A stretch of DNA of 64,000 nucleotides from Limnohabitans sp. (GCF_023910625.1 NZ_JAAVVW010000002.1:294024-358023); one strand, 5' to 3'; positions 27,847 through 47,537 are shown, counted from the first letter of the stretch. Numbers and translations: made by a program. The notes: generated by a model not told the origin, from the letters alone.

Positions 27847-27903
27847 CGTTCGCCCTGAGCCTGTCAAAGCCAGTGCAAGCCTTCGACAGGCTCAGAGCGA
27901 ACG
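27847..27903. repeat. REP-like imperfect hairpin (19-bp arms, 19-nt loop)
   Basis: CGTTCGCCCTGAGCCTGTC ... GACAGGCTCAGAGCGAACG, 18/19 pairing. It translates to the spurious LSLSK...FDRLRANG peptide typical of REP-type repeats in high-GC proteobacteria. Confidence 0.6.
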
Positions 27904-28032
27904 GTTCATACATCACTGAGCCGAACCAATAAGTTTTGCCCCTCATGTCCTCGACCCTTATGTCTAGTGCTGAGTGGGTATAAAAGGCCTCGTCTGATGG
28001 ACAAGTTTTTGACCATGTCATACCACCGTGCC

Positions 28033-28368: not shown

Positions 28369-28393
28369 ACAAAAGTCCTTTCGTTGTGTTGTG

Positions 28394-28861: not shown

Positions 28862-29009
28862 TGACCCCGATCAAAAAAAACATCTTGAGCAGACATCGCC
28901 AAGCCGCGCACCCGTCCGCACACCCAGCTCAGATTGATCTGACTTTGGTAAATCATCGGCTGCAACATATACCCCGCCTCACAGTTATGCCTGACTCGCC
29001 CGGCCTAGG

Positions 29010-30128
29010 CTATGCATACTCGCTTAGCACACCATCGATTGGCACACCATCACCTGAGGGATCTGGTGCCACCTGAGACCCAGATTCAACATTTGATTCC
29101 GTCTGGCTTGCGGCCACTGGTTTTTGCAGAGCGGCAAGAAGGCGCTCGGCCAATTCCTTGGCAGCCGGATTATTCTTGCCCTTGTGGACAAAGCCGGTGA
29201 ATAACGCAAGAGCGTGAGTATCCTGAACTTCAGATACCGGCCGCGCATACAACGTCGCCACATCCTGGACAACTTGATCTAATGCGGGGTTATTCTGGAA
29301 CTCTCGCAACTTCTTCATGTTCTCGTAGCCGCCGTTGCCAGACAGGCCATCCACGTATCGTGAACTCAGATCCGCCAGGGATGTACCCAGATCCTTTTCG
29401 GCCGCCTTCAGCTCTAACCCGGCATTTTCGAAGGCTTCTTCAGCGGCATTCACCTTGTCAGGCTTCGCCGTTGTTAACGCAACTCCTGCCAGCTCACTTT
29501 GCAGTTTCTTATCCTGCACGTTGGCCATTTTCGAACCGATCGTTTGCACGTCTACAGCCACCTGTGGATCGACGGCGGCAGGTGTGTTACTCAGTGCGTC
29601 AGTCGCTTGCGTGCCTGTGACGCTGTTTGTCTCTGCGGTTTGTGTTGGTTCGGGCTTGACAGGTGGTGTTCCGGCTGTAGTTGGGGCTTTAACCTGAATC
29701 TTGTCGTAGCCCACGCCAAGAAAAGTAGCCGCAGTTTGCATCCTGCCGCTCTCACCCGCACCGATAAACTTGAGCTGATTGCCGATTGTCATTAGCCGCT
29801 CAATCTCATTAAAGATGGTTTTTTTTTGGTCTTGCGGGATGAGGGGGTCATTGAACTGGTCTTTTTTATAGTCGAGCAAGGCTTTCAACTTTAAGTACTG
29901 ACCGTCCCGCACCGGTCGGTCATTGCTAGTGCCAAACTTGACAAGTTCATCAGTAAGCTGTTTTTTTTCGCCCTGCGTGAGCTGCGCCCCGACCTTGAGA
30001 TTCGTAAGGACTTTTGAATTCGGCAAAGGTGGAGCATACGAAACGTTAAATCGATTGACATTGCCACCTCCACTGCCCGATATGCTGCTATTGCGTTCCT
30101 GCTTGATTGGTTGTAATCCAAAAAACAT
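29010..30128 (-). CDS. 372-aa Cys-free, Trp-free hypothetical protein (candidate secreted T3SS protein)
   Basis: AAGGA-type RBS. N-terminus Ser/Gly/Asn-rich (NSSISGSGGGNVN). Central Thr/Pro-rich linker (APTTAGTPPVKPEPTQTAETN). Helical C-half. Divergent from sctV. Confidence 0.55.
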   Translation of the reverse strand: MFFGLQPIKQERNSSISGSGGGNVNRFNVSYAPPLPNSKVLTNLKVGAQLTQGEKKQLTDELVKFGTSNDRPVRDGQYLKLKALLDYKKDQFNDPLIPQDQKKTIFNEIERLMTIGNQLKFIGAGESGRMQTAATFLGVGYDKIQVKAPTTAGTPPVKPEPTQTAETNSVTGTQATDALSNTPAAVDPQVAVDVQTIGSKMANVQDKKLQSELAGVALTTAKPDKVNAAEEAFENAGLELKAAEKDLGTSLADLSSRYVDGLSGNGGYENMKKLREFQNNPALDQVVQDVATLYARPVSEVQDTHALALFTGFVHKGKNNPAAKELAERLLAALQKPVAASQTESNVESGSQVAPDPSGDGVPIDGVLSEYA

Positions 30129-30714: not shown

Positions 30715-30729
30715 TGGCACACAAGTTGC
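30715..30729 (+). promoter_or_regulatory. Sigma-54 (-24/-12) promoter upstream of sctV
   Basis: TGGCAC-ACAAG-TTGC is an exact match to TGGCAC-N5-TTGC with GG-N10-GC spacing. It ends 45 nt upstream of the sctV ATG (30775). Confidence 0.75.
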
Positions 30730-30774
30730 GCTACGAATGCCACAACATGGCAAAAAACGCTCTTTGATTTCGGT

Positions 30775-32856
30775 ATGAACGCAAAAATAAGCAAAATCTT
30801 TCTGGCAGCAGGCAAGCAGGCCGACATGGCTTTTGCAGTGCTTACCCTCGCGATGGTAGGGTTGCTGGTGGTGCCATTGCCGCCTTGGCTGCTTGACATA
30901 TTGCTGGCTGTCAGCATGGTGATGGGTGTGGGCATGCTGATGTACGCGCTTTACGCGCACTCGCCAGTCATGTTGTCGGCGTTTCCGTCGGTTTTGTTGC
31001 TGTCCACCATGTTTCGTATTGCCTTGAATGTGGCCACTACCCGGCAGATTCTTTTAGCGGGCGACGCTGGCCACATCATTGAGGCCTTTGGCAGATTTGT
31101 GGTGGGCGGTAACCTGGTGGTGGGCCTGGTCGTGTTCATCATCATTGCGCTGGTGCAGCTGATTGTGGTGTCCAAAGGTGCCGAGCGTGTGGCCGAGGTG
31201 AGTGCGCGCTTTGCACTTGACGGCCTGCCCGGCAGGCAGATGAGTATTGATGCCGATGTGCGTGCGGGCTCCATGACCAGTGGCCAGGCGCAGTACGCGC
31301 GGCGCATGCTGCTGGCCGAAAGCGCCATGTTTGGCTCCATGGATGGTGCCATGAAGTTTGTCAAGGGCGACGTGATTGCCGGCATGATCATTGTGGTGAT
31401 CAATTTATTGGGTGGTATTGCCGTTGGCGTGATTTACGCAGGCATGTCCGCCGGTGCGGCTGTTGATCATTACTCTGTGCTGGCTATCGGCGATGGCTTG
31501 GTGTCACAAATACCGGGGCTTTTTGCGGCGCTGGCTGCGGGTATTTTGGTGACGCGCTCGTCCAACAGTACCGCCCCCAATCTGGGGTGGGAGATCCTTC
31601 AGCAGTTGCGTATGCAGCCCAAGGCACTGCTTGTAACTGGCGCCATTGCCACGGTCGTAGGCCTGGTGCCTGGGCTGCCAACCCTGGTCTTTATATGTCT
31701 TGGCCTTCCGCTTCTGGCCATGGGCGCATGGCTTCACAAGACCGAGCTGTCGGGCAAAGGCGGCTGGGCGGGCTTGACCACTGAAAACGCGCTGCGCGAA
31801 GGGCAGCCGTCAAAAAGGACTTTGCTGATCGATGAGCAGTCGTATGAGTTTTGTATTGTCTGCCTTGAAATACATGACGATCTCGTACTCGACTTGTCCC
31901 CTGATGTCATTGACGAAGAGCTTACCCGTTTGCGCGGGGAGCTCAAAACAAGCTTGGGTCTGCCCTACCCAGGCTTGCTGGTCAGGCAAACCGGGCAGCT
32001 TGAGCCGGGCCAATACCAGGTCACCGTGCTGGGCAACGTCTGCGCCAAGGCGGCTGCACCCAAAGGCTCCTGCTACTTCGACGGACCGGTAGCAACAATG
32101 ACCGAGCTTGGCCTTACGCCAACGGCCAACGGCCTCAACGTGACGACGGGTTGTTGGTTGTCTGCTGAAGACGCAGCGGCGGCACGTGCTGTAAAGCACA
32201 CCTTGCTTGAGCGTGAGAACGGGCTGATTCGCGTCGTCGGTGACGTGATCCACAAGCATGCCCATGTGCTGTTTGGCATTCAGGAAATGCAGCTTGTCCT
32301 GGGCCAGCATGAGGGCACCTACCCTGACCTTTGCCGGGAGGCGGTCAACACGGTGCCGCTGACGCGGATGACCAAAATCCTCAAAAGCCTGCTGCGCGAG
32401 GGTGTGTCCATCAGAGACATGCGAACCATTCTGGATGCCCTGGTATATGGTGCGCAAGAGCCGGGCGACGATTTAACTCTTGGCGAACTGGTTCGCAAGG
32501 CACTGACCTTGCAAATATGCAAAACGCTGGTCACCCCCAACAATGTTTTGCGGGCCGTCATGCTGGACCCGCTGCTTGAAGGGCAGTTTCGCGAGAGTCT
32601 GCAGCAAACGCCGCTTGGCCCGGCGCTACAGCTGCCGCCGTCTGCCGCACAGCAGTTTCAACAGGGCGTAACTCAAGCCATTGAACGCGTGGTGTCCAAG
32701 GGCTCAACCGCTCATATCAGTGTGGTAACTGCGCCTGACCTGCGTTTGCACGTAAGACGACTTCTTGAGCCCAGCCTGCCGCATATTGCCGTGCTGGCCA
32801 CAGACGAAATTGCACCTGGCGTGCGGCTTCAGTCGCTGGGTATGCTGCGCGGCTGA
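30775..32856 (+). CDS. sctV: T3SS export gate protein SctV (YscV/HrcV/InvA family)
   Basis: 693 aa. N-terminal TM domain with ...FGRFVVGGNLVVGLVVFIIIALVQLIVVSKGAERVAEVSARFALDGLPGRQMSIDAD..., near-consensus FHIPEP. Cytoplasmic C-domain present. Confidence 0.95.
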   Translation: MNAKISKIFLAAGKQADMAFAVLTLAMVGLLVVPLPPWLLDILLAVSMVMGVGMLMYALYAHSPVMLSAFPSVLLLSTMFRIALNVATTRQILLAGDAGHIIEAFGRFVVGGNLVVGLVVFIIIALVQLIVVSKGAERVAEVSARFALDGLPGRQMSIDADVRAGSMTSGQAQYARRMLLAESAMFGSMDGAMKFVKGDVIAGMIIVVINLLGGIAVGVIYAGMSAGAAVDHYSVLAIGDGLVSQIPGLFAALAAGILVTRSSNSTAPNLGWEILQQLRMQPKALLVTGAIATVVGLVPGLPTLVFICLGLPLLAMGAWLHKTELSGKGGWAGLTTENALREGQPSKRTLLIDEQSYEFCIVCLEIHDDLVLDLSPDVIDEELTRLRGELKTSLGLPYPGLLVRQTGQLEPGQYQVTVLGNVCAKAAAPKGSCYFDGPVATMTELGLTPTANGLNVTTGCWLSAEDAAAARAVKHTLLERENGLIRVVGDVIHKHAHVLFGIQEMQLVLGQHEGTYPDLCREAVNTVPLTRMTKILKSLLREGVSIRDMRTILDALVYGAQEPGDDLTLGELVRKALTLQICKTLVTPNNVLRAVMLDPLLEGQFRESLQQTPLGPALQLPPSAAQQFQQGVTQAIERVVSKGSTAHISVVTAPDLRLHVRRLLEPSLPHIAVLATDEIAPGVRLQSLGMLRG

Positions 32857-32896
32857 CCCGGCCTTGAAAAATCACATACAAACTGGTAGCCCCGAA

Positions 32897-35008
32897 ATGC
32901 GTCTTCTCTTAGCCACTCAAACTGGGCATACAGCGCTGATTGCTGCGATTGCCACACTTGCCTTAGGCAATGGGTACACCTTTGCGCAGGTGCTTAACCC
33001 GCCTGTGCAGCAAACGCCGCCGTTGCCCTCGGGCACAGCGCCAACGCCAACGCCAACGGCCCGTGCTGCAAAGACGCCCGCGCGCGAGCTTTTGCTTCAA
33101 ACCAGGCTTGGCGCAGACAAGCGCGTGGCTATCGACTCACGTGACAGCACGATTACCCAGGTATTGACCGACCTGATGGGCGATGCGGGCTTGCCGGTCA
33201 TCGTCGATGAATCGATCAAAGGCACGGTAAGCGGCCGGTTTGAAGGCACCCGGCAGCGCGTGCTGGACGACATCTGCAGGCAGCAGGCCCTGAGCTGGTA
33301 CTTTGATGGTGCGGCGCTGTACGTTACCCGTTTGAGCGCCATTGCCACCCGTATGGTCTGGATGGAAACCGAAGCCATCAACCGCTTGAGCACATTGGCG
33401 ACAGACCTTGGGCTGCTGGACGGCAGATACGTTTACAGGCCCGTGCCAACAGAGCGTTACGCCCTCATGACGGGGCCACCCCGCTACCTGCAGCGCATGC
33501 TTGACCTGGCCAAAACCGTTGGGGCACAGCCCAAGCCTGAGAGCCAGTCCATGCAGACAAAGGTTTTCAGGCTCAGGTATGCGTCCGCAGCCGACACCGT
33601 ACTCACCACGACTGGCGGACCCACCCGGGTAGAGGGGGTAGCCACTGTGGTAGGTCGCCTGGCGGGTGTTCCCATCAATGACATAAACAAGTCAGCAAGC
33701 CGGGCAGACGCCACACAGCCAGGGCGCATGGCGGGAAAACTTGGCAAAGATGCCGGCCCAGGTACAGAGCAGCTTCGGCTGGGCCTGGATAGCCTGCAAC
33801 TACCTGACCTGGACGGCGAGGATGGATCGATCCCCATGATGCCCTTGCCGATGATCGGATTGGGCAACGGGCCGTTGCCAGCCCGCACATCAGGCGCTGC
33901 CGCGAGGACAGACGCTGCCGCGAGAGCAGATGCCCAAGCGGCTGCGGAGCTGCGCGCCAACACCGGCGCACAAGCAGCTTCTGCCCGGCCTGGAGATTCC
34001 ATCGTCACAGCCGAGCCACGGCTCAATGCCGTGATCGTCAGGGCAGACCGCAGCCGCATGCCCATGTTTGAGGAGCTGATTGAGCAACTGGATGTGCCCT
34101 CGAAAATGGTGGAAATCGAAGTCGAGATTTTTGATATTGACTCGACCCGCTTGCAGGAGTTGGGCGTAGACCTGCGACTGACCGCACGCAAGATAGACAT
34201 GACTGCTGCGGGCAACACGGCGGCTACGGGCGGGGGGCTGGTGGTTTCCGCCGTGCTGGGTGGCGCAAACCTGCTATTGCAGACGCGCCTACGCGCACTC
34301 GAACAATCAGGGGAGGCCACCATTGTTTCGCGACCCCGTATTTTGACCATGGACAACGTCAAAGCGACCTTGTCCAATACCAGCGAGTTTTTTGTCAAGC
34401 TGGCAGGTGAGCGGACGACCAACCTGTTCAACGTCAACTACGGCCTACAGATGGCGGTACAACCCACAGTGCTAGGCAACCCGGACAACCCCAGCGTTCA
34501 GCTGGCCGTTCAGATCAGCGATGGCGGGGCGCTGGCCCAGCAGGTAGACAGCCTGCCCAGCGTGACACGCAACGGACTTACCACTCAGGGCATTGTTCGA
34601 TCTGGCGACAGCCTGATGATTGGGGGCTATGCAATAGAGCGAGCCTCGTCCAGCCTCAATCGTGTCCCATTTTTGTCAGACGTACCCGTTGTGGGCAGGC
34701 TCTTTAACTCCCGCACGCAGACGAACAGCCGGCGCGAACGCGTATTTTTGATCACGCCCAGGGTCATTGAGGTTGGCGCAAGCGTTTTGCCAGAAACGAC
34801 CAAAGCGTTTCCTCAGACTGGCATGCCGAATCCACCCAGCCTCTTTCCAAGCCTGAGTTTTGGCGCTGAAGCCGCGCCATCAATCAAGCTTGACACGTCC
34901 ATGACCCGCTCGCTGCGCTTGAGCGATATCGTCAATGAAGGCGCTAATCGGGGGGGCGCCTCATCAGGTAAAGCTGGGGCCAGACCGGCACCCAATTCAC
35001 CACCGTGA
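32897..35008 (+). CDS. sctC: T3SS outer-membrane secretin SctC
   Basis: Signal peptide MRLLLATQTGHTALIAAIATLALG. Secretin domain ...IVSRPRILTMDNVKATLSNTSEFFVKL... and ...VPFLSDVPVVGRLFNSRTQTNSRRERVFLITPRVI. Contains an Ala/Arg-rich low-complexity insert. Confidence 0.9.
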   Translation: MRLLLATQTGHTALIAAIATLALGNGYTFAQVLNPPVQQTPPLPSGTAPTPTPTARAAKTPARELLLQTRLGADKRVAIDSRDSTITQVLTDLMGDAGLPVIVDESIKGTVSGRFEGTRQRVLDDICRQQALSWYFDGAALYVTRLSAIATRMVWMETEAINRLSTLATDLGLLDGRYVYRPVPTERYALMTGPPRYLQRMLDLAKTVGAQPKPESQSMQTKVFRLRYASAADTVLTTTGGPTRVEGVATVVGRLAGVPINDINKSASRADATQPGRMAGKLGKDAGPGTEQLRLGLDSLQLPDLDGEDGSIPMMPLPMIGLGNGPLPARTSGAAARTDAAARADAQAAAELRANTGAQAASARPGDSIVTAEPRLNAVIVRADRSRMPMFEELIEQLDVPSKMVEIEVEIFDIDSTRLQELGVDLRLTARKIDMTAAGNTAATGGGLVVSAVLGGANLLLQTRLRALEQSGEATIVSRPRILTMDNVKATLSNTSEFFVKLAGERTTNLFNVNYGLQMAVQPTVLGNPDNPSVQLAVQISDGGALAQQVDSLPSVTRNGLTTQGIVRSGDSLMIGGYAIERASSSLNRVPFLSDVPVVGRLFNSRTQTNSRRERVFLITPRVIEVGASVLPETTKAFPQTGMPNPPSLFPSLSFGAEAAPSIKLDTSMTRSLRLSDIVNEGANRGGASSGKAGARPAPNSPP

Positions 35009-36298: not shown

Positions 36299-36314
36299 TG
36301 GCACGCTTCATGCT
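36299..36314 (+). promoter_or_regulatory. Sigma-54 (-24/-12) promoter upstream of the GDPH-motif protein gene
   Basis: TGGCACG-CTTC-ATGCT with GG-N10-GC spacing, about 93 nt upstream of the ATG at 36407. Confidence 0.7.
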
Positions 36315-36406: not shown

Positions 36407-37318
36407 ATGAGCAATGTAAAACTTGAAACACTGAGCGCTGGCAAGAAGACGCTAAGCTCGGGCGGCGTTGATTTTGAGGTGACAGCTTTCAGCGCAAGCG
36501 AGGTGGAAGCCGTGTCTGCCAGAACCGGAAACTACATGTACGCCAGGGCCGCAGATCGGGTTTTTGCCATGGCAAAAGACCTCAACAACAACGGGAAACT
36601 CGACTCGGGAGACTCCGTTATCTACAGCTTTGGGGATCCCCACTTCAATCAGGTGACGCTGACCGGCAATGAGGGATCAAGTCTTAAGGACATCGTTGCG
36701 TTCTGCGGCTATGCCACTGACTTCGATGTGCAGTCAAACTACATTCTGCACACCAAAGATGCACAGGCGTTGGTTGACACGGAGGTGCTTTCGGAAACCT
36801 ATACCATGAACGACAAAATCACCTGGGAGGTAGCTGGCGAAAATGGTCGCAAGGGTGCCATATCGTTAGATTTCAATGCCGATGGTGGCATCGACCTGGG
36901 CACCGGACAGCTGGTCACCCAACAAAGCCTTGCGGCGGACGCAAGCGGCGACGCAACGGTTGACCTGTTTTACGACCCTGACCGGTCAGGGCTTGTGTTT
37001 ACCAAGGCAGCAGATGGACGCAAGGCAGCTATAGAAGACGGGGCATTCATCAACCGGGCGGGGCAAGAGATAAACAAAAAGCTGGTCTTGGCAGCCAAGG
37101 GGGAGTTCCAAGAGTCACGCGGGGCATATTTTGGGGTTGGAAATCATGAGGGTGCTGTTGTAGAGCCAGCCACAAACGAAAAGGCAAAAAATAAGGTGAA
37201 CATGCAGCTAGAGGTGTCGCAGTTCAACAAAGAAGACCCGGACGAGGATGAGGAGGCGCAAGAAGAAGCCTTCCAATTGAACTTGAGCCTGAGCTCGAAC
37301 AAGTCAAAAGCGACCTAA
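36407..37318 (+). CDS. Candidate T3SS effector with an EF-hand-like loop and a GDPH self-cleavage-type motif
   Basis: 303 aa. DLNNNGKLDSGD (a Dx[DN]x[DN]G-type Ca loop) sits 7 aa before SFGDPHFNQ. Acidic C-tail EDPDEDEEAQEEAF. Preceded by its own sigma-54 promoter. Confidence 0.6.
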   Translation: MSNVKLETLSAGKKTLSSGGVDFEVTAFSASEVEAVSARTGNYMYARAADRVFAMAKDLNNNGKLDSGDSVIYSFGDPHFNQVTLTGNEGSSLKDIVAFCGYATDFDVQSNYILHTKDAQALVDTEVLSETYTMNDKITWEVAGENGRKGAISLDFNADGGIDLGTGQLVTQQSLAADASGDATVDLFYDPDRSGLVFTKAADGRKAAIEDGAFINRAGQEINKKLVLAAKGEFQESRGAYFGVGNHEGAVVEPATNEKAKNKVNMQLEVSQFNKEDPDEDEEAQEEAFQLNLSLSSNKSKAT

Positions 37319-37368
37319 GAACTCAACATCAACCTGAGGCAATTTGACAAATTCACCGCGCGTGAAAT

Positions 37369-37392
37369 AGACCCCCACGTAGACCCCCACGT
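37369..37392 (+). repeat. Two perfect tandem copies of the 12-bp unit TAGACCCCCACG
   Basis: AAATAGACCCCCACG TAGACCCCCACG TCAAATAG, in the intergenic region upstream of the small ORF and needle-like gene. Confidence 0.85.
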
Positions 37393-37421
37393 CAAATAGG
37401 CCAGGTTGCGAACAAGTTTAG

Positions 37422-37667
37422 GTGATGAAAAAGTTTCCCAGTCACGGCATTTTGGAGGTCACCGACATGGAGCGCAGGTTTCGTTCGGACCCGAAGAATG
37501 TCTTAAAGGAAATTTCAAAAAAACTTGGCGAGAAAATAGAGTCTGCACAAAACAGCCCTCAGGACAACCGAGGGCTAAGGCGGATAGATCTGCTTCGTCT
37601 CGCCAACCAAAGAGTCATCGCCTTATCAAAGGCTTTGAAAGCGCCAGTGTCGATTAAAAGACACTAG
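37422..37667 (+). CDS. Small basic hypothetical protein (66-81 aa)
   Basis: ORF with alternative starts (MMKKF... at 37422, MERRF... at 37467). Lys/Arg-rich and helical. No recognisable motif. Confidence 0.3.
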   Translation: MMKKFPSHGILEVTDMERRFRSDPKNVLKEISKKLGEKIESAQNSPQDNRGLRRIDLLRLANQRVIALSKALKAPVSIKRH

Positions 37668-37714
37668 CGCAGTGTTTTCAGTGTGTGTTCAACTCAACTT
37701 CTAAAGGTGTAAAT

Positions 37715-38170
37715 ATGTCTAATACTGCCCAACTATCCGCAACAACCACAGCAAACGGCACGCAACTTTTGACGAATACTGAAAGGGTGAATGGGATAGC
37801 CGTGACTCAGTACGAGTCTGTAACGCAGAACTTGCTAAATGGCGATATCGCAGTCGCAACGACTGTAGCGGCTCGCACCGCAGACGTAGCAATCAAACAA
37901 GCAAAGGATATTACTCTTGCGGCCAAAGCACGGATGGATCCGGTTTGGCAAAAAGACGCAAACGGCAACGATATGAGAGATGCAGCTGGCCAAAAAATAC
38001 CCGTGATGGATATGAAAACCAATAGACAAGTGGTTGAACAGGGCGATTTGACCAACGCCGACATCAATGACATTAACCTGTTGAACAAACAGGCCTCCAT
38101 TGCGATGGCGATGAATCAGTCATTCACTTCCTTGTTGAACAAAATTGAGCGGACGGTTGCTACCCAGTGA
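37715..38170 (+). CDS. Candidate needle/pilus-type filament protein (SctF/EspA-like), 151 aa
   Basis: Cys-free, no TM, polar N-terminus (MSNTAQLSATTTANGTQ). The C-terminal amphipathic helix ...DINLLNKQASIAMAMNQSFTSLLNKIERTVATQ resembles needle and filament C-termini. Located upstream of the chaperone-like ORF and sctI. Confidence 0.45.
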   Translation: MSNTAQLSATTTANGTQLLTNTERVNGIAVTQYESVTQNLLNGDIAVATTVAARTADVAIKQAKDITLAAKARMDPVWQKDANGNDMRDAAGQKIPVMDMKTNRQVVEQGDLTNADINDINLLNKQASIAMAMNQSFTSLLNKIERTVATQ

Positions 38171-38253
38171 TAGAAGATGGCTTTGCGAGAATTGACTTTT
38201 GTTGATTTTTGCAAGGCCGCAGTCTGAAGATCGTCGGCTGACCGGATGCATTT

Positions 38254-38649
38254 ATGCAAGAAGATGAAACCCTGCTGTCGGACTTGGCTTGCCTTTTCGC
38301 CAATATCGGGCAAGGCGGCACCAGTTTAAAAATACTGGAGGGCTTGGCTGAGTTGACGGGCAGCAAGATTTACTTTGCTTACGCAGCGCACGTTAAAAGC
38401 AGGTACTTCAAAGGCACTGCATCGGTTGGATTGAATTATCTTTTTGGCAAACTGGGGGCGCAGGTTTTTTCTGAGTACACCCTGATCATGTTGATGATTC
38501 CTTTGCTTCTGAGGGTGGCGCGGTTCAAGGCCGCGCTGGGTTGCGTAAGGGTGCTGATCAACGCGCGCAATCCAGCGCTCAGGCAAGCGGCACTGGGGCT
38601 CAATGCCTCTATCCGAGAGATGCTTCAGTCGCCCCAAGCAGTCGTCTAA
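38254..38649 (+). CDS. Hypothetical protein, possible T3SS chaperone (assigned by position only)
   Basis: 131 aa helical ORF between the filament-like gene and sctI. No motif recognised. Confidence 0.3.
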   Translation: MQEDETLLSDLACLFANIGQGGTSLKILEGLAELTGSKIYFAYAAHVKSRYFKGTASVGLNYLFGKLGAQVFSEYTLIMLMIPLLLRVARFKAALGCVRVLINARNPALRQAALGLNASIREMLQSPQAVV

Positions 38650-38710
38650 CGGTAAAAAAACGGCTTGTCTCTGCGCTGAAGGGCCAAGAGCAAGTCACTC
38701 GGAGGTATCT

Positions 38711-39103
38711 ATGTTCGATTCAATTGCCGGTGTTGCTGCCGTGGGCAATGCCGCAGGCGCGGCCGGTGCAGCGGCCAGCCCGTCCGCTGATGGTGGCCTG
38801 TCTGCTCTGCGCGGTCAAAGTGTGGATGCGGGACGCCAGGCCGACCTTGCTCGCCAAGTGAAATTGGAGGGCACAGACGAGGTGAGCATGTTGGGCCTCA
38901 ATGGCGCGCCGAGCGCCATGAACCAACCCTTGTTTGCTATCAGCTCCATCATGAACAAGCCAGACGGCCCCAACATGGAGGATATGGTGAATTTGCAACT
39001 GGGCCTGATGAACTACAGCATGTCCATGACCATCATGACCCAATCGCACAAGAAGATCAGCGAGTCCAAATCGGCGCTGATGAATGAAGGCAAGAACGCC
39101 TAG
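38711..39103 (+). CDS. sctI: T3SS inner rod protein SctI-like
   Basis: GGAGG RBS 6 nt upstream. 130 aa. Ala/Gly-rich N-terminus and C-terminal ...EDMVNLQLGLMNYSMSMTIMTQSHKKISESKSALM, like YscI/EscI/PrgJ. Immediately upstream of sctJ. Confidence 0.6.
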   Translation: MFDSIAGVAAVGNAAGAAGAAASPSADGGLSALRGQSVDAGRQADLARQVKLEGTDEVSMLGLNGAPSAMNQPLFAISSIMNKPDGPNMEDMVNLQLGLMNYSMSMTIMTQSHKKISESKSALMNEGKNA

Positions 39104-39124: not shown

Positions 39125-39913
39125 GTGTCAGCCATGCGCCTTCCTTCGTGTTTTCAATGTGTACTGGCTTGCACAGTTGCATTGCTGCTTGCCGGCTGCT
39201 CCATGCAACTGCACCAGGACCTTTCTGAGCCCGAGGCCAACATGATCATCAGCGCGCTGAAGGTGTCGGGCATTGACGCCAGCAAGCAACCGATGAAAGA
39301 CAAAAAGTGGGCCGTGACGGTGGCTGAGTCTGACTTTGCGCCAGCGGTGTTGATTCTGCGTGACCACAACCTGCCACCAGCACCCTTTAACGGCTTGGGC
39401 CAGGTGTTCAAGCGCGAGGGCATGCTGGCGACACCGACCGAAGAGCGTGCCAGGTTAATGCATGCCGTGTCTGAAGAATTGATGCGAACCATCCGCTCTT
39501 TTGATGGGGTGGTTGATGCACGGGTGCATGTGGTGGTGCCATCAACCGAGGCGCTGATCGACAAGGTGCAGCCGGCGTCTGCATCCGTTCTCGTCAAGAC
39601 GCTGCCGGACTTTGAACTTAAAGACGCCGTGACAGACATCAGGGCGCTGGTGGTGAACGCGGTAGAAGGGCTGGACCCTGGCAGGGTGTCTATCGTGCTG
39701 GTGCCGGTTGATGTGCGCAGGCAACTCAAAATGGCACCGGCCACCAGCGACGCAACCCAACTTTATGCGGCGGGTTTTGCAGGCATGGCATTGACTGCCT
39801 TGCTCATAGGGCTTGCCATGCTGGTACGTAGGCGCAGGCTCAGCGCATTGAACAACCAAGGAAAAGCCGCCACCCAAGCGCCTGATGCTGCGAATGCGGT
39901 GCGGTCAGCTTGA
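39125..39913 (+). CDS. sctJ: T3SS inner-membrane ring lipoprotein SctJ (YscJ/HrcJ/EscJ)
   Basis: Lipobox LLLAGC. ...LHQDLSEPEANMIISALKVSGIDASK...FDGVVDARVHVVVP... is the YscJ/FliF-type signature. C-terminal TM. The start may be the ATG at 39134. Confidence 0.9.
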   Translation: MSAMRLPSCFQCVLACTVALLLAGCSMQLHQDLSEPEANMIISALKVSGIDASKQPMKDKKWAVTVAESDFAPAVLILRDHNLPPAPFNGLGQVFKREGMLATPTEERARLMHAVSEELMRTIRSFDGVVDARVHVVVPSTEALIDKVQPASASVLVKTLPDFELKDAVTDIRALVVNAVEGLDPGRVSIVLVPVDVRRQLKMAPATSDATQLYAAGFAGMALTALLIGLAMLVRRRRLSALNNQGKAATQAPDAANAVRSA

Positions 39914-40581
39914 CCGGCCTGAAAGGCAAAGGCATGACCCATGTAAACTCTGGCGGCGACAGGCTCATGAGCAAGGCATCTGACAATCGCCGCGCAAGGG
40001 CCAAGCGCACACTGCTTCGCCTTGCCATGGGGTGGCAGGCCGACTATGGCCAGCAGGCGGACTCTGAAGCTGTGTCGGCAGACCGACCGGTGAAACTGCT
40101 GGGGCAAAACCGGGCTGAAAGGATTCGCCTCAAGCACCAGGCACTTTCGCTTGAACTGTGTGCATTGGGCCCACCGAGCACTTTTGAGCCCGCGTGGTGG
40201 TGGGAGCCATCAAAGTTTGCAGCATTTACGGACTCTTTGGCCATCACCCTCAGAGCGCCCAGGGTACGAGGTGCCATTCGCCGGTCCAGCGTACTGCAGT
40301 TGGTCAAAGAATTGGGCAACGAGGGCTTTGAAAAAGCCCTGGCCGTGCCGGAGAGTTTTTCTTATCTGGCAGAAACATCCAGACCCGCACCGCCGGATGC
40401 CAAGGTACAACCGGCCTTGCTATTGGCCCTTTCAGCCATTCGTCGGCAAAGCCCTCTGCTGGGCGCGCGTCTGGCCACCCTGCACCTTGGCCCGCACGGG
40501 CCGGGCATGCTGCACGAAATGGTGGACATACGGGCAGCCAACCTGCTCGACACGCTCGCGGCAGAGGCGGCCTTGACCTGA
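39910..40581 (+). CDS. SctK-like sorting-platform protein (assigned mainly by position)
   Basis: About 200-223 aa soluble protein directly after sctJ, as for yscK/hrpD/orgA. No strong motif. Start ambiguous (TTG 39910, ATG 39934 or ATG 39967). Confidence 0.35.
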   Translation: MTGLKGKGMTHVNSGGDRLMSKASDNRRARAKRTLLRLAMGWQADYGQQADSEAVSADRPVKLLGQNRAERIRLKHQALSLELCALGPPSTFEPAWWWEPSKFAAFTDSLAITLRAPRVRGAIRRSSVLQLVKELGNEGFEKALAVPESFSYLAETSRPAPPDAKVQPALLLALSAIRRQSPLLGARLATLHLGPHGPGMLHEMVDIRAANLLDTLAAEAALT

Positions 40582-40635: not shown

Positions 40636-42156
40636 ATGAATTCTTTATTTTCGCTTTTGGGCGCTCTGTTGGCGATTGGCATGCTGGGGCTGTTGTTGGG
40701 TAGCGTCATGCCCAAGCTCAAGCACGTGTCGCAATCGCTGGCGGCCATGTGGCACCGTCCGGGCGCACGCCTGATGCTCCTGGTGATGGCCATCGGCCTG
40801 GCCGTCACAGCTTTGGCAAGTGCGCTGCGGGCCAGCGGCGTGACATTACTGGCCATACCAACTCCGCGCCTTTCTGCAGGATTAAGCATACAGGCTGAGG
40901 CTTTCACTTTACCAGTGGTGCTGCTTTATCTTGTGGTGGGGCTGACTGGCTTGTTCGTTCTGCTTTTTGCGCTACGCGCCCTTGCGATCAAAAAGCAGCT
41001 GACCCGAGTCATTGGCGCGTTGTCGCTTGCGCGGGCTGGCAGTGCGGCAGGCACGCCTGAACAGATTGGCAGCAGCTTCAGCTGGCACGTGCTCAAGGGC
41101 CCATGGCAAAACTACAGCGCCACATTGGTCGCAACCACGGCTTCGCCAAAACCAGACACGGTGTGGCGGGCGGCCATACCGTCGGGGTTTTTCTTTTCGA
41201 GAGATGCGCTGATTGACGACTGGCTCATGGACAGCTTTGGCCGTCACCTGCCGGGCATATTGACTGGCCTGGGCATTGTTGGCACCTTCGCAGGCATGCT
41301 GGAGGCCCTGAGCCAGTTTGACCCATCCACAGCAGAGTCAGCTGCACTGGGTTTGAAAGGATTGCTCTCGGGTGTTAGCCATGCGTTTGTTGCGTCAATG
41401 GGTGCTATCAGTTGCGCCATCTTTGTGACCGCGTTGTCGCGTATGGTGATTGCCCATGTCCAAAAAAATGCCGAAAAAATGACTGCCGAGCTTGACCGGC
41501 TGTATCCCGCCGGTGCCGGGGAAAGTCAAATGAGCGACCTATACGCCAATTTGAATGCCTCGCACCTGGCTGGCCGGCCTGATGAAGCGCTGACGCAGCA
41601 GCTGCTGCAACGGCTTGTAGAGCAGATGACCCAAAGCCACCATCAATCATCGCAAGCGCTTGCAGACCTTGAAAGAAAACAGCAATTTTTTGAAGAGCGC
41701 TTGCTTCACTGCATAGAAAACGCGTTTGCCAGCCTTGCTACATTGCCAAACAGCGTATTGCGCAATACGGCGCAGTCCGCAAGCCAGCCCGCCTGGCTCG
41801 GCGAAGGTGTGGACAGGGGCGGGAGTCCAGTGCCCAAAGCTTTGTCGGCGATAGGACGACCCTCAAAGCTGAGCGCTGCCAGAACATCATCTGCTGACAG
41901 TCACAACACGGGTTACAGAACCCTTGAAGACCTGTCGGCAATGGATGAAACCACTGAAACGTCAGACACACAGTCGATGCAGGGGATGGACGACTTTGAC
42001 GATTCGCATCTGCAAGCCGACTTTGAACAGCGTATTGTGTTTTCAATCAACCGCAAGCTGGACCGTGGTTTCGCGCGCATTGAAAGCAAACTTGATAACG
42101 AGTTGCGCAGAACCTTAACACCCGAAGCCATACCCGAAGCCATGGCAGAGGGCTGA
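40636..42156 (+). CDS. MotA/TolQ/ExbB-family proton-channel protein with a long C-terminal tail (ZorA-like architecture)
   Basis: 506 aa. 3 N-terminal TM segments. Channel helices LPGILTGLGIVGTFAGMLEAL and GVSHAFVASMGAISCAIFVTALS. Then about 220 aa of helical/acidic tail (…LVEQMTQSHHQSSQALADLERKQQFFEERL…). Confidence 0.7.
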   Translation: MNSLFSLLGALLAIGMLGLLLGSVMPKLKHVSQSLAAMWHRPGARLMLLVMAIGLAVTALASALRASGVTLLAIPTPRLSAGLSIQAEAFTLPVVLLYLVVGLTGLFVLLFALRALAIKKQLTRVIGALSLARAGSAAGTPEQIGSSFSWHVLKGPWQNYSATLVATTASPKPDTVWRAAIPSGFFFSRDALIDDWLMDSFGRHLPGILTGLGIVGTFAGMLEALSQFDPSTAESAALGLKGLLSGVSHAFVASMGAISCAIFVTALSRMVIAHVQKNAEKMTAELDRLYPAGAGESQMSDLYANLNASHLAGRPDEALTQQLLQRLVEQMTQSHHQSSQALADLERKQQFFEERLLHCIENAFASLATLPNSVLRNTAQSASQPAWLGEGVDRGGSPVPKALSAIGRPSKLSAARTSSADSHNTGYRTLEDLSAMDETTETSDTQSMQGMDDFDDSHLQADFEQRIVFSINRKLDRGFARIESKLDNELRRTLTPEAIPEAMAEG

Positions 42157-42179
42157 AGCGCCGCCACGAGGCAATCACA

Positions 42180-42890
42180 ATGAAAGCACATTTCTCGCAA
42201 CGCCATGCAACCGCTTCAGGAGAAGATAACCCGTTCTGGATTTCTTATTCAGACCTGATGACGGCTGCCATGATCATCTTCATGACCATCATGGCCATCA
42301 CCATGGCGCTGATTGGCAAGACGGCGCCCGCGCTTGCGGGCACTTACAGAACGCTTGCTGGCGCTGATGTGATGCGCGACATTGAGCTGGCATCCAAAAG
42401 ATATCCAGGCATTGCGGTGGACGTCAAGACCGGTGTTATCGACATCGGCGAGTTGGTTCGCTTTGGCAGAGGTCAAGCCGGCGTGAGCGCAGAGGCTGGC
42501 GCTACTTTGCGTGAATTCGTCAAAGAAGTGCTGGCGCAGCGCAATGCAACCACCAAAGCAGGACACATCAAAAACATTGTTGTCGAGGGCTATGCCGACC
42601 AGGATGGCGCCTACCTTTACAACCTGTCTCTTAGTCTGAACAGAAGCCGCAACGTGGTTTGCGCGCTTCTTGATACTTCGGCACAAACTGCGGTACTTGA
42701 CGAGGGCGATAAAAACACCCTGCGCCAACTGCTGATGGTTGGCGGATTTTCTTCAAACAGCCTCAGGGAATCCAAGGAGTCAAGTCGCCGGGTCGAAATG
42801 AAGTTTGTTTTCGCATCGGCCAACGAAGCGCCGTTGCCTGCCCGACCTGCGGCAAACCTCACAGAACTTGGCAGTTGCAACAAGGCCTAG
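42180..42890 (+). CDS. MotB/OmpA-family stator protein (plug/TM with a conserved Asp plus a peptidoglycan-binding domain)
   Basis: NPFWISYSDLMTAAMIIFM parallels E. coli MotB ...YADFMTAMMAFF (Asp32 region). The OmpA-like block is VVEGYADQDGAYLYNLSLSLNRSRNVVCALL. Confidence 0.8.
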   Translation: MKAHFSQRHATASGEDNPFWISYSDLMTAAMIIFMTIMAITMALIGKTAPALAGTYRTLAGADVMRDIELASKRYPGIAVDVKTGVIDIGELVRFGRGQAGVSAEAGATLREFVKEVLAQRNATTKAGHIKNIVVEGYADQDGAYLYNLSLSLNRSRNVVCALLDTSAQTAVLDEGDKNTLRQLLMVGGFSSNSLRESKESSRRVEMKFVFASANEAPLPARPAANLTELGSCNKA

Positions 42891-43008
42891 CGCGGCCAAC
42901 GTCGCCATGCAAGCAGCGCGCAGCCTCACAGCCTCACAGTCATTGAATGGCCCATCGACATGGATGCCGTCATCTACCAAGATGGCCGTTCTGTCTGACC
43001 CAACAGCC

Positions 43009-43584
43009 ATGAGCCGGAGCGAGACAACCAAGCGCAGGGGCGACCACCGACGCGCAGGCTTCAGGGTCGTGATTGGCAGTTTGGCCTTTTGGGCAAGCGC
43101 GTCCGTCAGTCTGGCCCAAAATCTGAACTGCGTCATGAGTGCGGCGCAGCATCATGGCGTGAATCACTGGGTTCTTTCTGGCATTCTCTGGCAAGAAAGC
43201 CGCTGGAAGGCCAATGCGGTGCGCGGCAACAGCAACGGCACAGTGGACTACGGCATCGCGCAAATCAACAGCGTACACCTGCCAGAGCTCAAAACCCACC
43301 GCATCCATGAAGACGATTTGATGGATGCCTGTGTTGGCACCTATGTTGCCGCCTGGCATCTGCGCAAGCAGATCGACAAATACGGCAACAACTGGTTTGC
43401 CGTGGGCGCCTACCACTCTGTGACGCCAGCACTCAACAGGCGGTACGCTCAAAGTGTCTGCAATGTGCTGTCGGGTTGGCAAAAAGGGGGCCGCGTGGCA
43501 ACAAAAGCCATCGACTGTGACAACATCACAACACGGCCACAGGGGGGTACAAAAGGCACCCCAGGACCACGGGCCCCGCCCTGA
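43009..43584 (+). CDS. T3SS-associated lytic transglycosylase (SLT domain; IagB/EtgA/HpaH-like)
   Basis: Signal peptide ...FRVVIGSLAFWASASVSLAQ. Catalytic LSGILWQESRWKANA. DYGIAQINS. AVGAYHS. The start could instead be 42907, 42964 or 42982. Confidence 0.85.
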   Translation: MSRSETTKRRGDHRRAGFRVVIGSLAFWASASVSLAQNLNCVMSAAQHHGVNHWVLSGILWQESRWKANAVRGNSNGTVDYGIAQINSVHLPELKTHRIHEDDLMDACVGTYVAAWHLRKQIDKYGNNWFAVGAYHSVTPALNRRYAQSVCNVLSGWQKGGRVATKAIDCDNITTRPQGGTKGTPGPRAPP

Positions 43585-44093: not shown

Positions 44094-45023
44094 ATGTCAA
44101 GCGCAATAACTCGTAGCTCTTCAGGGCAAGTTAAGTCGAATAACACGACTTACACGGATCAACTGAAGGATCTGCCAAAAAACACACCAAAAACACCACC
44201 AGACCTCGGTTTGCAACCCTTTTTCGGGGCTAACTGGGGTCACCCTGATTTAAAAAAATATCTTCCCTCCGTTCTAGGAGGAGCCCAAACTATACCGGGT
44301 GGGCCCACGAGCCAGGGGGGATTAGGCGTGGCTGTGTACTTTCCCCAAGCCAACACCGTTTTTGCAACTACTACTGGTAAGCCAATCGGACTAAAAAACT
44401 TAGAAAAATATGCACTGAAACCTGTGATAACCGCTACGCAAGATCCAAAAACCGGCAAGTTTTCGGTACAGATTGGGGCGGGTAATGCACATGAGATTGA
44501 TAAGTCAGGAACCTTTGTTTTTTGGAATGTACGTGTCGCTGGCGATGCTATAAACAACGCGTTAGAACGTTCCAAAACAAACGGATCGAACCCCATCGTC
44601 ATTAGCAATATAAATGCCGGACTTTTAACATCGGCTTTGTGCCCAAAAGATACCAGGAAAAACAACCCGGGCAATGCGACCGCAGGTCTTGCCGTAGGTA
44701 CGGGCTTTAGTGGATTGAAACTCGTTGCCAAAAATGGCAACCTTGAAGTTACCAATTCTAGTGGAATTAGCCTTCCTGTAGCAGCCTTCCAAGCCGGTCT
44801 TACTGCGGCGGCGGCAACGCAGACTTTTGCCAAACTCAGCGGTTGCACGGCTGAACAGAGCGTTAACGAATTCAAGCAGAATTTGCAACAGGCTTTAAAA
44901 GCCGGCCAGGACAACTTGGCAGAATTTGGCAAAGGCGCTGACCAAGTGGCGGGTGGTTTGGCGGGTCTTGTGGGTGCGTTTTTTGCTCCGTTGTTCGATA
45001 ATTGGGGGCCGAGTGGCATATAA
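44094..45023 (+). CDS. Hypothetical protein, candidate T3SS effector or secreted protein
   Basis: 309 aa in a clearly AT-richer segment. The N-terminus MSSAITRSSSGQVKSNNTTYT is polar and free of acidic residues. Gly/Asn/Thr-rich. Hydrophobic Gly-rich C-end GGLAGLVGAFFAPLF. Confidence 0.55.
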   Translation: MSSAITRSSSGQVKSNNTTYTDQLKDLPKNTPKTPPDLGLQPFFGANWGHPDLKKYLPSVLGGAQTIPGGPTSQGGLGVAVYFPQANTVFATTTGKPIGLKNLEKYALKPVITATQDPKTGKFSVQIGAGNAHEIDKSGTFVFWNVRVAGDAINNALERSKTNGSNPIVISNINAGLLTSALCPKDTRKNNPGNATAGLAVGTGFSGLKLVAKNGNLEVTNSSGISLPVAAFQAGLTAAAATQTFAKLSGCTAEQSVNEFKQNLQQALKAGQDNLAEFGKGADQVAGGLAGLVGAFFAPLFDNWGPSGI

Positions 45024-46175: not shown

Positions 46176-47537
46176 TTAAGAAACCTGGGCCAAATCCCGC
46201 AAATCATTCACCGTGGTTTCAAACTCCGCCCGCTCGTCAACTTCCTGCTTCAGAAAGACTTTGAGCTCAGGGTTGATGGCCACCGCCATGTCGGCGTTGG
46301 CATCTTCACCCTGGCGGTATTCGCCGACTTGAATCAGGATTTCCAGATCCTGAAACTTCGCCCACAGTTCCCGCGCGCGAACCGAGGCCCGGCGATGCGA
46401 GTCGTCAACCAAGCGCGACATCACGCGGCTGGTACTGGCCAGTATGTCAATCGCCGGGTAATGGCCGGCTTCGGCCAGTTTGCGTGATAGAACAATATGC
46501 CCGTCCAGCAGCGAGCGCACTTCTTCTGAAACAGGGTCCATGCCGTCATCGGTTTCTTCCAGCACCGTGTAAAAGCCGGTGATGGCCCCTTCACTGGACT
46601 GCCCGGCCCTTTCAAGAAGCCGGGGCAACTGTGAAAAGACTGAAGGCGGAAAGCCCCGGCGCGTTGGCGGCTCACCGGCAGACAAGCCCACCTCACGCAG
46701 CGCCCGCGCGTAGCGCGTGACTGAATCCATCAGTAGCAAAACCGACAAGCCCTGATCGCGAAAGTATTCGGCAATGCTCGTGGCCACCTGCGCTGCGCGA
46801 ATGCGTTCCATGGCGGGCCGGTCTGATGTGGCCACCACCACGACTGAACGCTGCAATGCCTCTGGCCCCAAGGAGTGCTCAAGAAACTCGCTTACTTCCC
46901 GACCGCGCTCACCAATCAGCGCAATCACATTGATCTGCGCGCTGGAGTTGGTGGCCAGCATGCTCAGTAGGGTGCTTTTACCGCAGCCGGCAGGCGCAAA
47001 AATACCCACCCGCTGGCCCTCACCACAGGTCAAAAAGCCATCAATACAACGCACCCCCAGGTGCAGCGGCGTGTCAACCGGCTTTCGCGACAGCGGCGGC
47101 GGAGCGTCCTGCTCAACCGACACATGTGCATAACCCGTCACTTCTTCCGCATCACCATCCAGGTAGTGACTACCCAACCCATTAAGCACCCGGCCCAGCA
47201 AAAAATCACCCACAAACACCCCGGGCCGACGCCCAGTGTTGACCACTTCGGTGTTGGTGGCAATGCCTTCCGTCTGCCCCATCAGCGCCAGCAGCACATG
47301 CTTGTTGGCAAAGCCGATGACCTCACCCGCCAGCACTTTGCCGTTGATCAGGCGCAGTTCACACAAGTCACCCACTCGCGCCACCAGACCACTGACCTTG
47401 ACCAGCGTGCCGACCGCTTCAATCACGCGACCACGCCGTACAAATGGGTCAAAGGTGTCAACGGCAACGGCCAACTGATCACTGATCTGCGATTCAAGGT
47501 CGCTCAGCTGTGATTGGGTTTCGGTTGGGGTGGTCAT
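46176..47537 (-). CDS. sctN: T3SS ATPase SctN (YscN/HrcN/EscN/FliI family)
   Basis: 453 aa. Walker A is GIFAPAGCGKSTLL and Walker B is VLLLMDSVTRYARALREVGLSAGEPPTRRGFPPSVFSQLPRLLERAG. Typical of F1/T3SS ATPases. Confidence 0.95.
   Translation of the reverse strand: MTTPTETQSQLSDLESQISDQLAVAVDTFDPFVRRGRVIEAVGTLVKVSGLVARVGDLCELRLINGKVLAGEVIGFANKHVLLALMGQTEGIATNTEVVNTGRRPGVFVGDFLLGRVLNGLGSHYLDGDAEEVTGYAHVSVEQDAPPPLSRKPVDTPLHLGVRCIDGFLTCGEGQRVGIFAPAGCGKSTLLSMLATNSSAQINVIALIGERGREVSEFLEHSLGPEALQRSVVVVATSDRPAMERIRAAQVATSIAEYFRDQGLSVLLLMDSVTRYARALREVGLSAGEPPTRRGFPPSVFSQLPRLLERAGQSSEGAITGFYTVLEETDDGMDPVSEEVRSLLDGHIVLSRKLAEAGHYPAIDILASTSRVMSRLVDDSHRRASVRARELWAKFQDLEILIQVGEYRQGEDANADMAVAINPELKVFLKQEVDERAEFETTVNDLRDLAQVS

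Follow-up and report, generated by a model that had tools for sequence, protein, structure and literature searches.

The stretch of DNA analysed here, 64,000 nucleotides (nt) from Limnohabitans sp. (GCF_023910625.1 NZ_JAAVVW010000002.1:294024-358023) and called the window when taken at its full length, encodes a non-flagellar type III secretion system (T3SS), or injectisome. Within one of its gene blocks lie two adjacent genes, A and B, whose products are homologues of ZorA and ZorB from type I Zorya anti-phage systems and not of the flagellar stator proteins MotA and MotB. The pair and its immediate neighbours are as follows.

40636..42156, + strand: gene A, ZorA-like pentamer subunit of 506 amino acids (aa), from its open reading frame (ORF) and ZorA homology.
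42180..42890, + strand: gene B, ZorB-like dimer subunit of 236 aa, with one transmembrane (TM) helix and an OmpA-like peptidoglycan-binding domain.
39125..39913, + strand: sctJ, inner-membrane ring lipoprotein (TIGR02544, E = 5.5e-55, 186 bits against a cut-off of 162 bits).
39910..40581, + strand: sctK-position gene, 223 aa, so called from its place after sctJ, as in outgroup clusters.
42982..43584, + strand: T3SS-type lytic transglycosylase, SLT/IagB-like (SLT below), from Pfam SLT and NCBIfam IagB.

A first-pass annotation of the sequence had proposed both reading frames, and they are present with exactly the coordinates and lengths it gave, adjacent and co-oriented, with the spacings it described (54 nt from the upstream gene to A and 23 nt from A to B). 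The motifs it quoted are found as well: in A, LPGILTGLGIVGTFAGMLEAL corresponds to residues 205-225 and GVSHAFVASMGAISCAIFVTAL to residues 246-267, and in B, NPFWISYSDLMTAAMIIFM to residues 17-35, GYADQDG to 137-143 and YNLSLSLNRSRNV to 147-159. Shine-Dalgarno-like GGAG and GAGG sequences stand 6-8 nt before the ATG codons of the two genes. The T3SS-type lytic transglycosylase it placed after B is recognized by both Pfam SLT (E = 1.3e-14) and NCBIfam IagB (E = 1e-18); the start of this gene is uncertain, gene callers on related contigs setting it at 42982 or 43009 and not at the mechanical 42805.

Both proteins match Zorya models strongly. A matches the PADLOC ZorA1 profile PDLC00598 (E = 6e-58), over residues 86-343 only, and EcZorA in the PDB (8qyd_A; E = 4e-33, residues 87-366). 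B matches the PADLOC ZorB1 profile PDLC00611 along its full length (E = 9.5e-66; residues 7-234 on profile positions 8-237 of 240) and EcZorB in the PDB (8qyd_F; E = 1.6e-34). The corresponding NCBIfam models also recover the pair (ZorA1, E = 1.6e-39; ZorB1, E = 2.3e-45), with scores of 135.9 and 154.9 bits that are far under the equivalog cut-offs of 750 and 400. The profile searches proposed with the first-pass annotation gave a mixed outcome next to these strong ZorA1 and ZorB1 matches, as Pfam OmpA on B is just over its cut-off (29.1 bits against 27.2) while MotA_ExbB on A (19.5 bits) and MotB_plug on B (20.2 bits) fall below their gathering scores of 22.9 and 24. Only a sub-threshold MotA_ExbB match was obtained in the Pfam scan of A because PF28082, 'ZorA-like_t1', which appears in precomputed annotations of relatives, is missing from the local Pfam-A copy. 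Curated flagellar models are further away still: MotB PRK08457 scores 14.9 bits against 250 and MotD 17.6 against 283, and no curated MotA model matched A in an NCBIfam-type profile scan.

The AlphaFold model of A is confident in its membrane core (residues ~90-300; predicted local distance difference test, pLDDT, 72-90). In Foldseek its top matches are EcZorA (E = 2e-13, TM-score 0.70-0.81), followed by ExbB/TolQ at E ~1e-2 and MotA/PomA at E ~0.2. Given the Zorya models, the PDB matches and the Foldseek ranking, A and B are a ZorAB-type pair and not a flagellar stator. The earlier description of a MotA/MotB-type (ZorAB-like) stator pair is accordingly upheld in its ZorAB-like part, by PADLOC, PDB and Foldseek alike, and not in its flagellar part, where all matches are sub-threshold.

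The residues of EcZorAB (PDB 8QYD) that are needed for function have been defined experimentally (Hu et al., Nature 2024, PMC11946911). Their counterparts in A and B lie at these positions.

42252..42254, + strand: codon of B Asp25, equal to EcZorB Asp26, the ion-carrying aspartate; kept.
42618..42656, + strand: B peptidoglycan-binding motif Y147, N148, L151 and R155, equal to EcZorB Y151, N152, L155 and R159.
41248..41436, + strand: A channel helices TM2 (205-225) and TM3 (246-267), from alignment to 8qyd_A; pLDDT 80-90.
41101..41127, + strand: lost Ca2+ site, PWQNYSATL, with EcZorA E86/E89 replaced by N159/A162 of A in the alignment to 8qyd_A.

EcZorB Asp26 is essential for defence (PMC11946911), and the four peptidoglycan-binding residues of B are invariant within the clade to which the pair belongs. 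B also keeps C161 and C233, the equivalents of the EcZorB disulfide between alpha3 and the C-terminal loop (domain stability), and it matches the ZorB of a verified ZorABCD system in length and cysteine pattern. Judged by alignment, B is an unmodified ZorB, with its channel aspartate and a peptidoglycan-binding domain of the preformed type. In A, the channel and filter residues P206, I214, T217 and S254 (EcZorA P136, I144, T147 and S184) are kept, and the TM2/TM3 region is 90-100% identical between lineages. The Ca2+ site is lost. Among long ZorAs the position of E86 is E in 111 of 125 and that of E89 is E or D in 101 of 125, and in EcZorA the E86/E89 site is required for defence, its mutation abolishing Zorya function against phage (PMC11946911).

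Both ends of A differ from those of long ZorAs.

40636..40890, + strand: A N-terminal extension, residues 1-85, clade-specific, with two hydrophobic segments (~2-24 and ~42-67).
41488..42156, + strand: short clade-specific cytoplasmic tail of A, residues 285-506, 222 aa, from the AlphaFold model and alignments.
41683..41706, + strand: tail island 1, QFFEERLL, residues 350-357, from the tail alignment.
42010..42084, + strand: tail island 2, LQADFEQRIVFSINRKLDRGFARIE, residues 459-483, with the pattern LQAxFEQRIVFSINRKLDxGFARIE, from the tail alignment.

The N-terminal extension is not present in long ZorAs by alignment and is conserved in loci L009, L010 and L007. Its two segments reach hydropathy peaks of 2.35 and 2.45 and are predicted to be transmembrane; the AlphaFold model renders the extension as helices at low confidence, and it has no meaningful PDB match and no Pfam match above noise. 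Because the topology is of ZorA/ExbB type and the loop at 25-45 carries positive charges, we infer that the segments may be two extra, peripheral TM helices in each subunit.

The tail was first described as a helical and acidic region of about 220 aa, and it does span 222 aa after residue 284, partly helical and with an acidic stretch. It is modelled as a helix at 294-368 (~75 residues), a linker of ~90 residues and a terminal amphipathic helix at 452-494. The linker, modelled with low confidence, is rich in Pro, Ser and Thr and then acidic, residues 430-464 containing 12 D/E and no K/R (listed as a feature at 41923-42009). The long ZorA tail is conserved in all Zorya types, and all truncations of it abolish defence (PMC11946911). 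Compared with the type I ZorA tail of ~500 aa, the tail of A has 222 aa and is unrelated in sequence, a profile-profile comparison by hhalign against canonical ZorA tails giving a probability of only 0.3%. MAFFT had aligned the last ~40 residues of the two, as though the short tail were an internal deletion that kept the canonical tip; with the hhalign value of 0.3% this was rejected as an alignment artefact.

Conservation within the new tail is concentrated in two islands. QFFEERLL is kept in four of the five aligned tails (the window, L009, L010 and L007), the fifth, the fragment P0150, having QAFEERLL. Around the second island, the window and L007 share 90% identity in block 461-480 and 20-30% in the blocks on either side. 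Both islands are close to invariant between lineages with just ~50-55% overall identity. Since they are conserved amid divergent flanks, they suggest a specific binding surface, with island 2 as a candidate partner-binding helix.

As for the other components of a Zorya system, PADLOC found no ZorC, ZorD, ZorE, ZorF or ZorG in the 309-aa ORF after SLT and the larger ORFs of the window, the small ORFs not all having been scanned. Downstream of B are SLT (identified with Pfam and NCBIfam, not PADLOC), the 309-aa ORF and sctN; the canonical relative at locus L016 has ZorC and ZorD. A 985-aa helicase at 5038-7995 (+ strand) was considered as a displaced ZorD and rejected, as PADLOC classes it as type III restriction-like and it lies 33 kb away, behind insertion sequence (IS) elements and metabolic genes. 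ZorAB alone is insufficient for defence (PMC8565338). With no effectors among the ORFs tested, the tail replaced and the Ca2+ site lost, the pair cannot, as far as its genes predict, act as a canonical Zorya system by the published criteria.

The clade to which the pair belongs is small. With A as query, a word-indexed search of 5.8 billion proteins found close clusters of similar length in three cases only (identity 100%, 77% and 54%), all other matches being long ZorAs of 650-854 aa, and the search with B agreed. Exhaustive phmmer with A against 1.84 billion representative proteins gave 1,388 matches, among which only P0002 and the fragment P0150, which belongs to the divergent L007 branch, match A beyond the channel core. 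In the species-level genome collection the pair is present in two genomes only, both Polaromonas metagenome-assembled genomes, and pattern scans of genomes and metagenomes added only three loci.

In every context recovered (L001-L006, L007, where A is 55% identical, L008, L009, L010, L014, L015, L017 and GCA_041443045.1) the gene order is sctJ, sctK-position gene, A, B, SLT, with A identities of 55-100%. The survey of related T3SS clusters that had been proposed along with the pair thus finds it between the sctK-position gene and SLT in every lineage context. SctJ is 78-100% identical inside the pair-bearing group and 53% or less outside it. The four outgroup T3SS clusters L011, L012, L013 and L018 (Piscinibacter gummiphilus), with SctJ 43-53% identical, have the order sctJ-sctK-sctL-sctN, and none of them contains a ZorAB-like pair. 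SLT, which follows B in every lineage, is 58% identical in the window to the SLT of outgroup L011, so that genes of the T3SS lineage stand on both sides of A-B. In the window, sctL (25429-26148, - strand) and sctN (46176-47537, - strand) are displaced, the outgroups L011-L013 and L018 having an sctJ-K-L-N-O operon, and the rearrangement breakpoint after the sctK-position gene is the exact site of A-B.

The nearest long-tailed relative examined, P0008 at locus L016, belongs to a type I Zorya system of the order ZorA-ZorB-ZorC(EH_Signature)-ZorD(SNF2+Mrr), which has GmrSD and a type I restriction-modification system beside it. Neighbour-joining on the channel core places the T3SS-linked proteins in a single clade of their own, sister to 13 long ZorAs that include the one from L016; the stem of this T3SS-linked clade measures 0.222, long compared with the median branch of 0.065. 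A-B descend from a captured type I ZorAB module. Taking both genes together, A would be a short-tailed ZorA with five TM helices and no effectors, paired with a standard ZorB and embedded in an injectisome operon.

Selection on both genes is purifying, as it is on the T3SS genes next to them, and they are not a pseudogenised remnant. By Nei-Gojobori dN/dS (omega) of the window against L010 and L007, the core of A has values of 0.12-0.14, its tail helix 0.25, its C-terminal helix 0.14-0.28, its linker 0.4-0.7 and its N-terminal extension 0.3-0.7; B has 0.19, sctJ 0.11-0.16 and the sctK-position gene 0.21. Synonymous divergence is alike across A, B, sctJ and the sctK-position gene, up to ~1.6, which is consistent with co-inheritance of the pair and the T3SS genes. 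GC at third codon positions (GC3) is 0.62 in A and 0.60 in B, compared with 0.61-0.74 in the T3SS genes and 0.76-0.82 in flanking housekeeping genes. Because omega, synonymous divergence and GC3 all match those of the T3SS genes, the pair looks neither like a pseudogene nor, as far as composition can tell, like a recent insertion.

The injectisome around the pair has its core set complete in the window (SctC, D, J, L, N, Q, R, S, T, U and V). A block on the minus strand contains, in window order, two sigma-54 activators, sctT, sctS, sctR, sctQ, sctL and sctU. The block on the plus strand runs sctV, sctC, sctD, small ORFs without assignment, a weak sctI-like ORF, sctJ, the sctK-position gene, A, B, SLT and the 309-aa ORF, after which come sctN on the minus strand and the housekeeping genes tatD, lolD and lolCE. 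Of the ORFs tested in the cluster, none was identified as a flagellar rod, hook or FliG gene. Three further features of the cluster are needed below.

46176..47537, - strand: sctN ATPase (TIGR02546, E = 1e-177).
18585-20024 and 20045-21373, - strand: pair of sigma-54 enhancer-binding activators, on the edge of the cluster.
36299..36314, + strand: sigma-54-type promoter-like motif TGGCACGCTTCATGCT in the sctD-orf303 intergenic region.

The upstream neighbour of A had been called sctK-like. That name is borne out by its position, and in sequence by a weak profile match only: it has no Pfam, NCBIfam or PDB match and no tblastn match to outgroup sctK-position genes, and against the outgroup proteins hhalign gives a weak local match (probability 27%, E = 6.7e-4). 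Its single-sequence AlphaFold model has a pLDDT of 36.8. Translation of this gene probably begins at M20 (39967), as in L010 and L007, for a product of 204 aa. The mechanical ORF start of sctC (32765-35008) is probably too far upstream, callers on related contigs placing it ~130 nt further in. Cluster ORFs of 303, 81, 161, 131, 130, 189, 187 and 372 aa (36407-39103, + strand; 27363-30128) have no family match, except that the 130-aa ORF has a weak match to SctI (E = 0.058). Current profiles recognise neither the needle nor the translocon and effectors of this T3SS lineage.

What the sequence says on expression of the pair is indirect. The gaps between the sctK-position gene and A and between A and B contain no sigma-70-like promoter and no terminator-like hairpin on the plus strand, in scans whose sigma-70 promoter and terminator counts were no different from those of shuffled sequence. 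The motif TGGCACGCTTCATGCT is identical in the window, L003, L009, L010 and L014, which are five loci from three species, and it is a candidate promoter of an operon running from orf303 through sctJ, the sctK-position gene, A and B (and SLT). A second sigma-54-type motif lies at 30715-30730 (+ strand), 60 nt upstream of sctV, and no conserved sigma-54 motif was found directly upstream of A across the compared loci. Because sigma-54 motifs are no more frequent in the window than chance predicts (10 against 6.9), only the position and conservation of these two sites are suggestive. Co-transcription of A-B with sctJ and the sctK-position gene is plausible on this arrangement, which also suggests that the injectisome regulon could be directly sigma-54-driven.

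The 309-aa ORF at 44094-45023 (+ strand) has no family match and no tblastn match in L007-L014 or L016, and its GC3 is 0.44 compared with 0.6-0.7 for the cluster. The region 3' of SLT is variable among related contigs, and this ORF may be a cargo or effector gene. An IS630-like (DDE_3) transposase of 345 aa is encoded at 9368-10405 (+ strand) of the window, and a transposase of the same length and domain architecture lies between orf309 and sctN at 14603-15640 in L001/L002, metagenome contigs of the same species, and not there in the window, which suggests that the IS630-like element is active in the population. The window also contains a DDE_Tnp_1 transposase (2601-4049, + strand) and, between a sigma-54 activator and sctT, a transposase fragment (21324-21716, + strand). 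GC of the region from 20 to 46 kb is lower than that from 48 to 58 kb. The transposases, the restriction-like helicase and the lower GC indicate that the T3SS region is a horizontally acquired island.

Given the above, we lean slightly towards a domesticated ZorAB motor that serves as a lineage-specific injectisome accessory in a small freshwater Polaromonas group. Every cluster recovered for the lineage carries the pair at one place in the operon, and selection on it is purifying, as expected of a lineage-specific accessory; it is not found in the outgroup clusters, which sets it apart from core or conserved Sct components. The first-pass annotation had offered either a recruited 5:2 motor or a captured ZorAB module; capture is right as to descent, and recruitment to the injectisome is consistent with the context. 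The present state of the pair supports recruitment through that genomic context only, a support that does not extend to the suggested energising of the secretin, the needle or peptidoglycan remodelling.

A mechanism for such an accessory can be proposed. The pair would be co-transcribed with sctJ, the sctK-position gene and the lytic transglycosylase from a sigma-54 promoter, and an A5B2 complex would presumably assemble in the inner membrane. B could anchor to peptidoglycan wherever it can reach the sacculus, perhaps at a nascent basal body that the transglycosylase has opened, and proton flow via Asp25 would drive rotation of the A ring. An injectisome component (the sorting platform, SctD or SctV) may then be contacted by the short tail or by the added TM helices, and this contact could couple the state of the envelope or the proton-motive force to assembly or activation of secretion. 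A sensory, regulatory or anchoring role is more likely than one as a power source for export, since the export gate already uses the proton-motive force. In its strongest form the proposal is that A-B work as part of the injectisome and are the first stator-like unit in a non-flagellar T3SS, ion-driven, 5:2 and anchored to peptidoglycan, in which the rewired output of a Zorya sensor (new tail and extra TM helices) signals the state of the envelope or the proton-motive force at the wall to the sorting platform or basal body and so controls assembly or firing. We hold this form only tentatively, with doubt outweighing belief.

Several observations weigh against an injectisome role. Physical contact with the injectisome and co-transcription with its genes are both inferences from sequence, the tail model has a pLDDT of ~50 or less, and a hint of a partner for the tail was sought in the PDB and Pfam with no meaningful match. 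Type III secretion in Yersinia is reportedly independent of MotAB (Wilharm et al. 2004). The clade is tiny, comprising two Polaromonas species representatives and a few metagenome lineages, and its conserved synteny could partly reflect shared ancestry and not selection for linkage. In the species of L010, L014 and L015, A-B-SLT stand at the edge of the T3SS cluster and are followed by housekeeping genes, and an operon end of this kind tolerates hitchhiking insertions. Other injectisomes do without a unit of this sort (Abby and Rocha, PMC3459982).

Of the other explanations, one is that the pair is a non-canonical, minimal or re-partnered Zorya variant, still anti-phage, riding in the T3SS island; its effector would be encoded elsewhere or its new tail would act on another partner, and in one version it would guard against injectisome-entry phages. 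We think this unlikely, although Zorya models supply all the best family matches, the end that senses and drives (B and the channel of A) is intact, and the lower GC and IS elements of the T3SS region mark the type of island where defence genes often lodge, with the pair at the cluster edge in some species. ZorAB alone does not suffice for defence (PMC8565338), the tail and the Ca2+ site that are both needed for it are gone here (PMC11946911), and no ZorC/D/E/F/G was seen among the ORFs tested. Moreover, both flanking genes are of the T3SS lineage, and the position of the pair is fixed over a synonymous divergence of more than 1, unlike the rapid turnover of defence islands. Another idea is that of a functional ZorAB-like envelope module, acting for example in peptidoglycan anchoring or envelope-stress sensing, that is unrelated to T3SS or defence and simply co-inherited and co-expressed at the end of an operon. 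Every short-tailed member with recovered flanks is T3SS-linked and none was found elsewhere among the 1.84e9 representatives, the changes in the tail and at the N-terminus arose on the stem of exactly the T3SS-linked clade, and SLT after the pair in every lineage makes the pair internal to a conserved T3SS block. Purifying selection does imply some function, the pair stands at the operon end in some species, and its tail has no detectable similarity to T3SS-binding domains, so an envelope module is a possibility to which we give small weight, a little below that of an anti-phage variant.

Two further explanations fare much worse. That the effectors, the long tail and the Ca2+ site have gone could be read as the decay of a Zorya system that lost ZorC and ZorD. 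Every lineage recovered has intact reading frames, most of A and B evolves with an omega of 0.12-0.25 at a synonymous divergence reaching ~1.6, the catalytic and peptidoglycan-binding residues are invariant and the tail islands highly conserved; a decaying remnant is contradicted by this selection analysis and is very improbable. A flagellar-type MotAB stator that rotates the injectisome, either kept since the flagellar ancestry of T3SSs or borrowed from a flagellar locus, would account for MotA/ExbB-type helices in A and for the TM aspartate and OmpA-like domain in B, which are a resemblance at the superfamily level only. Curated MotB-type models reach 14.9-17.6 bits where 250-283 are called for, none for MotA matches and the Pfam matches are sub-threshold; in Foldseek ZorA scores E ~1e-13 against ~0.2 for MotA/PomA, and the core of A is ZorA/ExbB-like and not that of a 4-TM MotA with a torque interface. 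The outgroup injectisome clusters have no such pair, and non-flagellar T3SSs are without MotAB and FliG (PMC3459982). A flagellar MotAB relic is ruled out by the curated models and the fold ranking, and we give it practically no credence.

A lineage-specific injectisome accessory derived from ZorAB would matter in several ways. If the link is functional, it would show in nature a secretion machine re-using a defence motor, offer a tractable handle on what ZorAB-type motors sense, as the input is kept and the output changed, and add a new class of injectisome accessory, parallel to SiiAB in the type I secretion system (T1SS). It would also, if true, be the first case on record in which an anti-phage motor was exapted into a secretion machine. 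Should the pair be a hitchhiker, a clade that is selected, effector-less and short-tailed would still show ZorAB roles outside canonical Zorya. To our knowledge, ZorAB has been described only in Zorya, as its sensor and motor, and injectisomes are thought to have no stator-type ion motor. The association was called undescribed when the pair was first noticed, and in the literature searched no paper links ZorA/ZorB or a stator-like pair to an injectisome, which is not proof of absence.

Among known systems, the ZorAB of type I Zorya is nearest in family. The pair shares with it the protein families, the fold of the membrane core and the order of A then B with a short gap, and B has the length and architecture of type I ZorB, its channel Asp, its peptidoglycan-binding Y/N/L/R and its cysteines. 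The pair differs in having no ZorC/ZorD among the ORFs tested, N/A at the Ca2+ site and two extra N-terminal TM segments, in scoring 136 against 750 and 155 against 400 on the NCBIfam models, and in its setting, a T3SS operon, where the type I Zorya relative lies in a defence island. MotAB and PomAB have the same type of pentamer-dimer channel, a TM Asp and an OmpA-like anchor, and belong to a flagellar machine related to the T3SS. However, the pair falls short of their curated models, the fold match is marginal, A is without the torque-generating cytoplasmic domain of MotA, and injectisomes have no FliG or C-ring rotor (PMC3459982).

Other ion-driven 5:2 motors, namely ExbBD-TonB, TolQR-TolA and GldLM/PorLM, energise envelope or secretion processes. 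ExbB/TolQ is the next-best fold for A after ZorA (Foldseek E ~1e-2 against 1e-13). B has an OmpA-like peptidoglycan domain and not a periplasmic domain of the ExbD/TolR or GldM type, and no TonB- or TolA-like partner is encoded next to the pair, whose neighbours are the sctK-position gene and SLT. By role the closest analogue is SiiAB of the Salmonella SPI-4 T1SS, a MotAB-like, peptidoglycan-binding proton channel that acts as an auxiliary unit and whose use of the proton-motive force is unexplained (Kirchweger et al., bioRxiv 10.1101/641415). SiiAB differs from A-B in serving a T1SS and not a T3SS, in belonging to another branch of the superfamily, no Sii model or structure being among the matches, and in the disordered periplasmic linker of SiiA, which ZorB-type subunits do not have. 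Like A and B, it is an inner-membrane pair of the MotAB superfamily encoded in a secretion operon.

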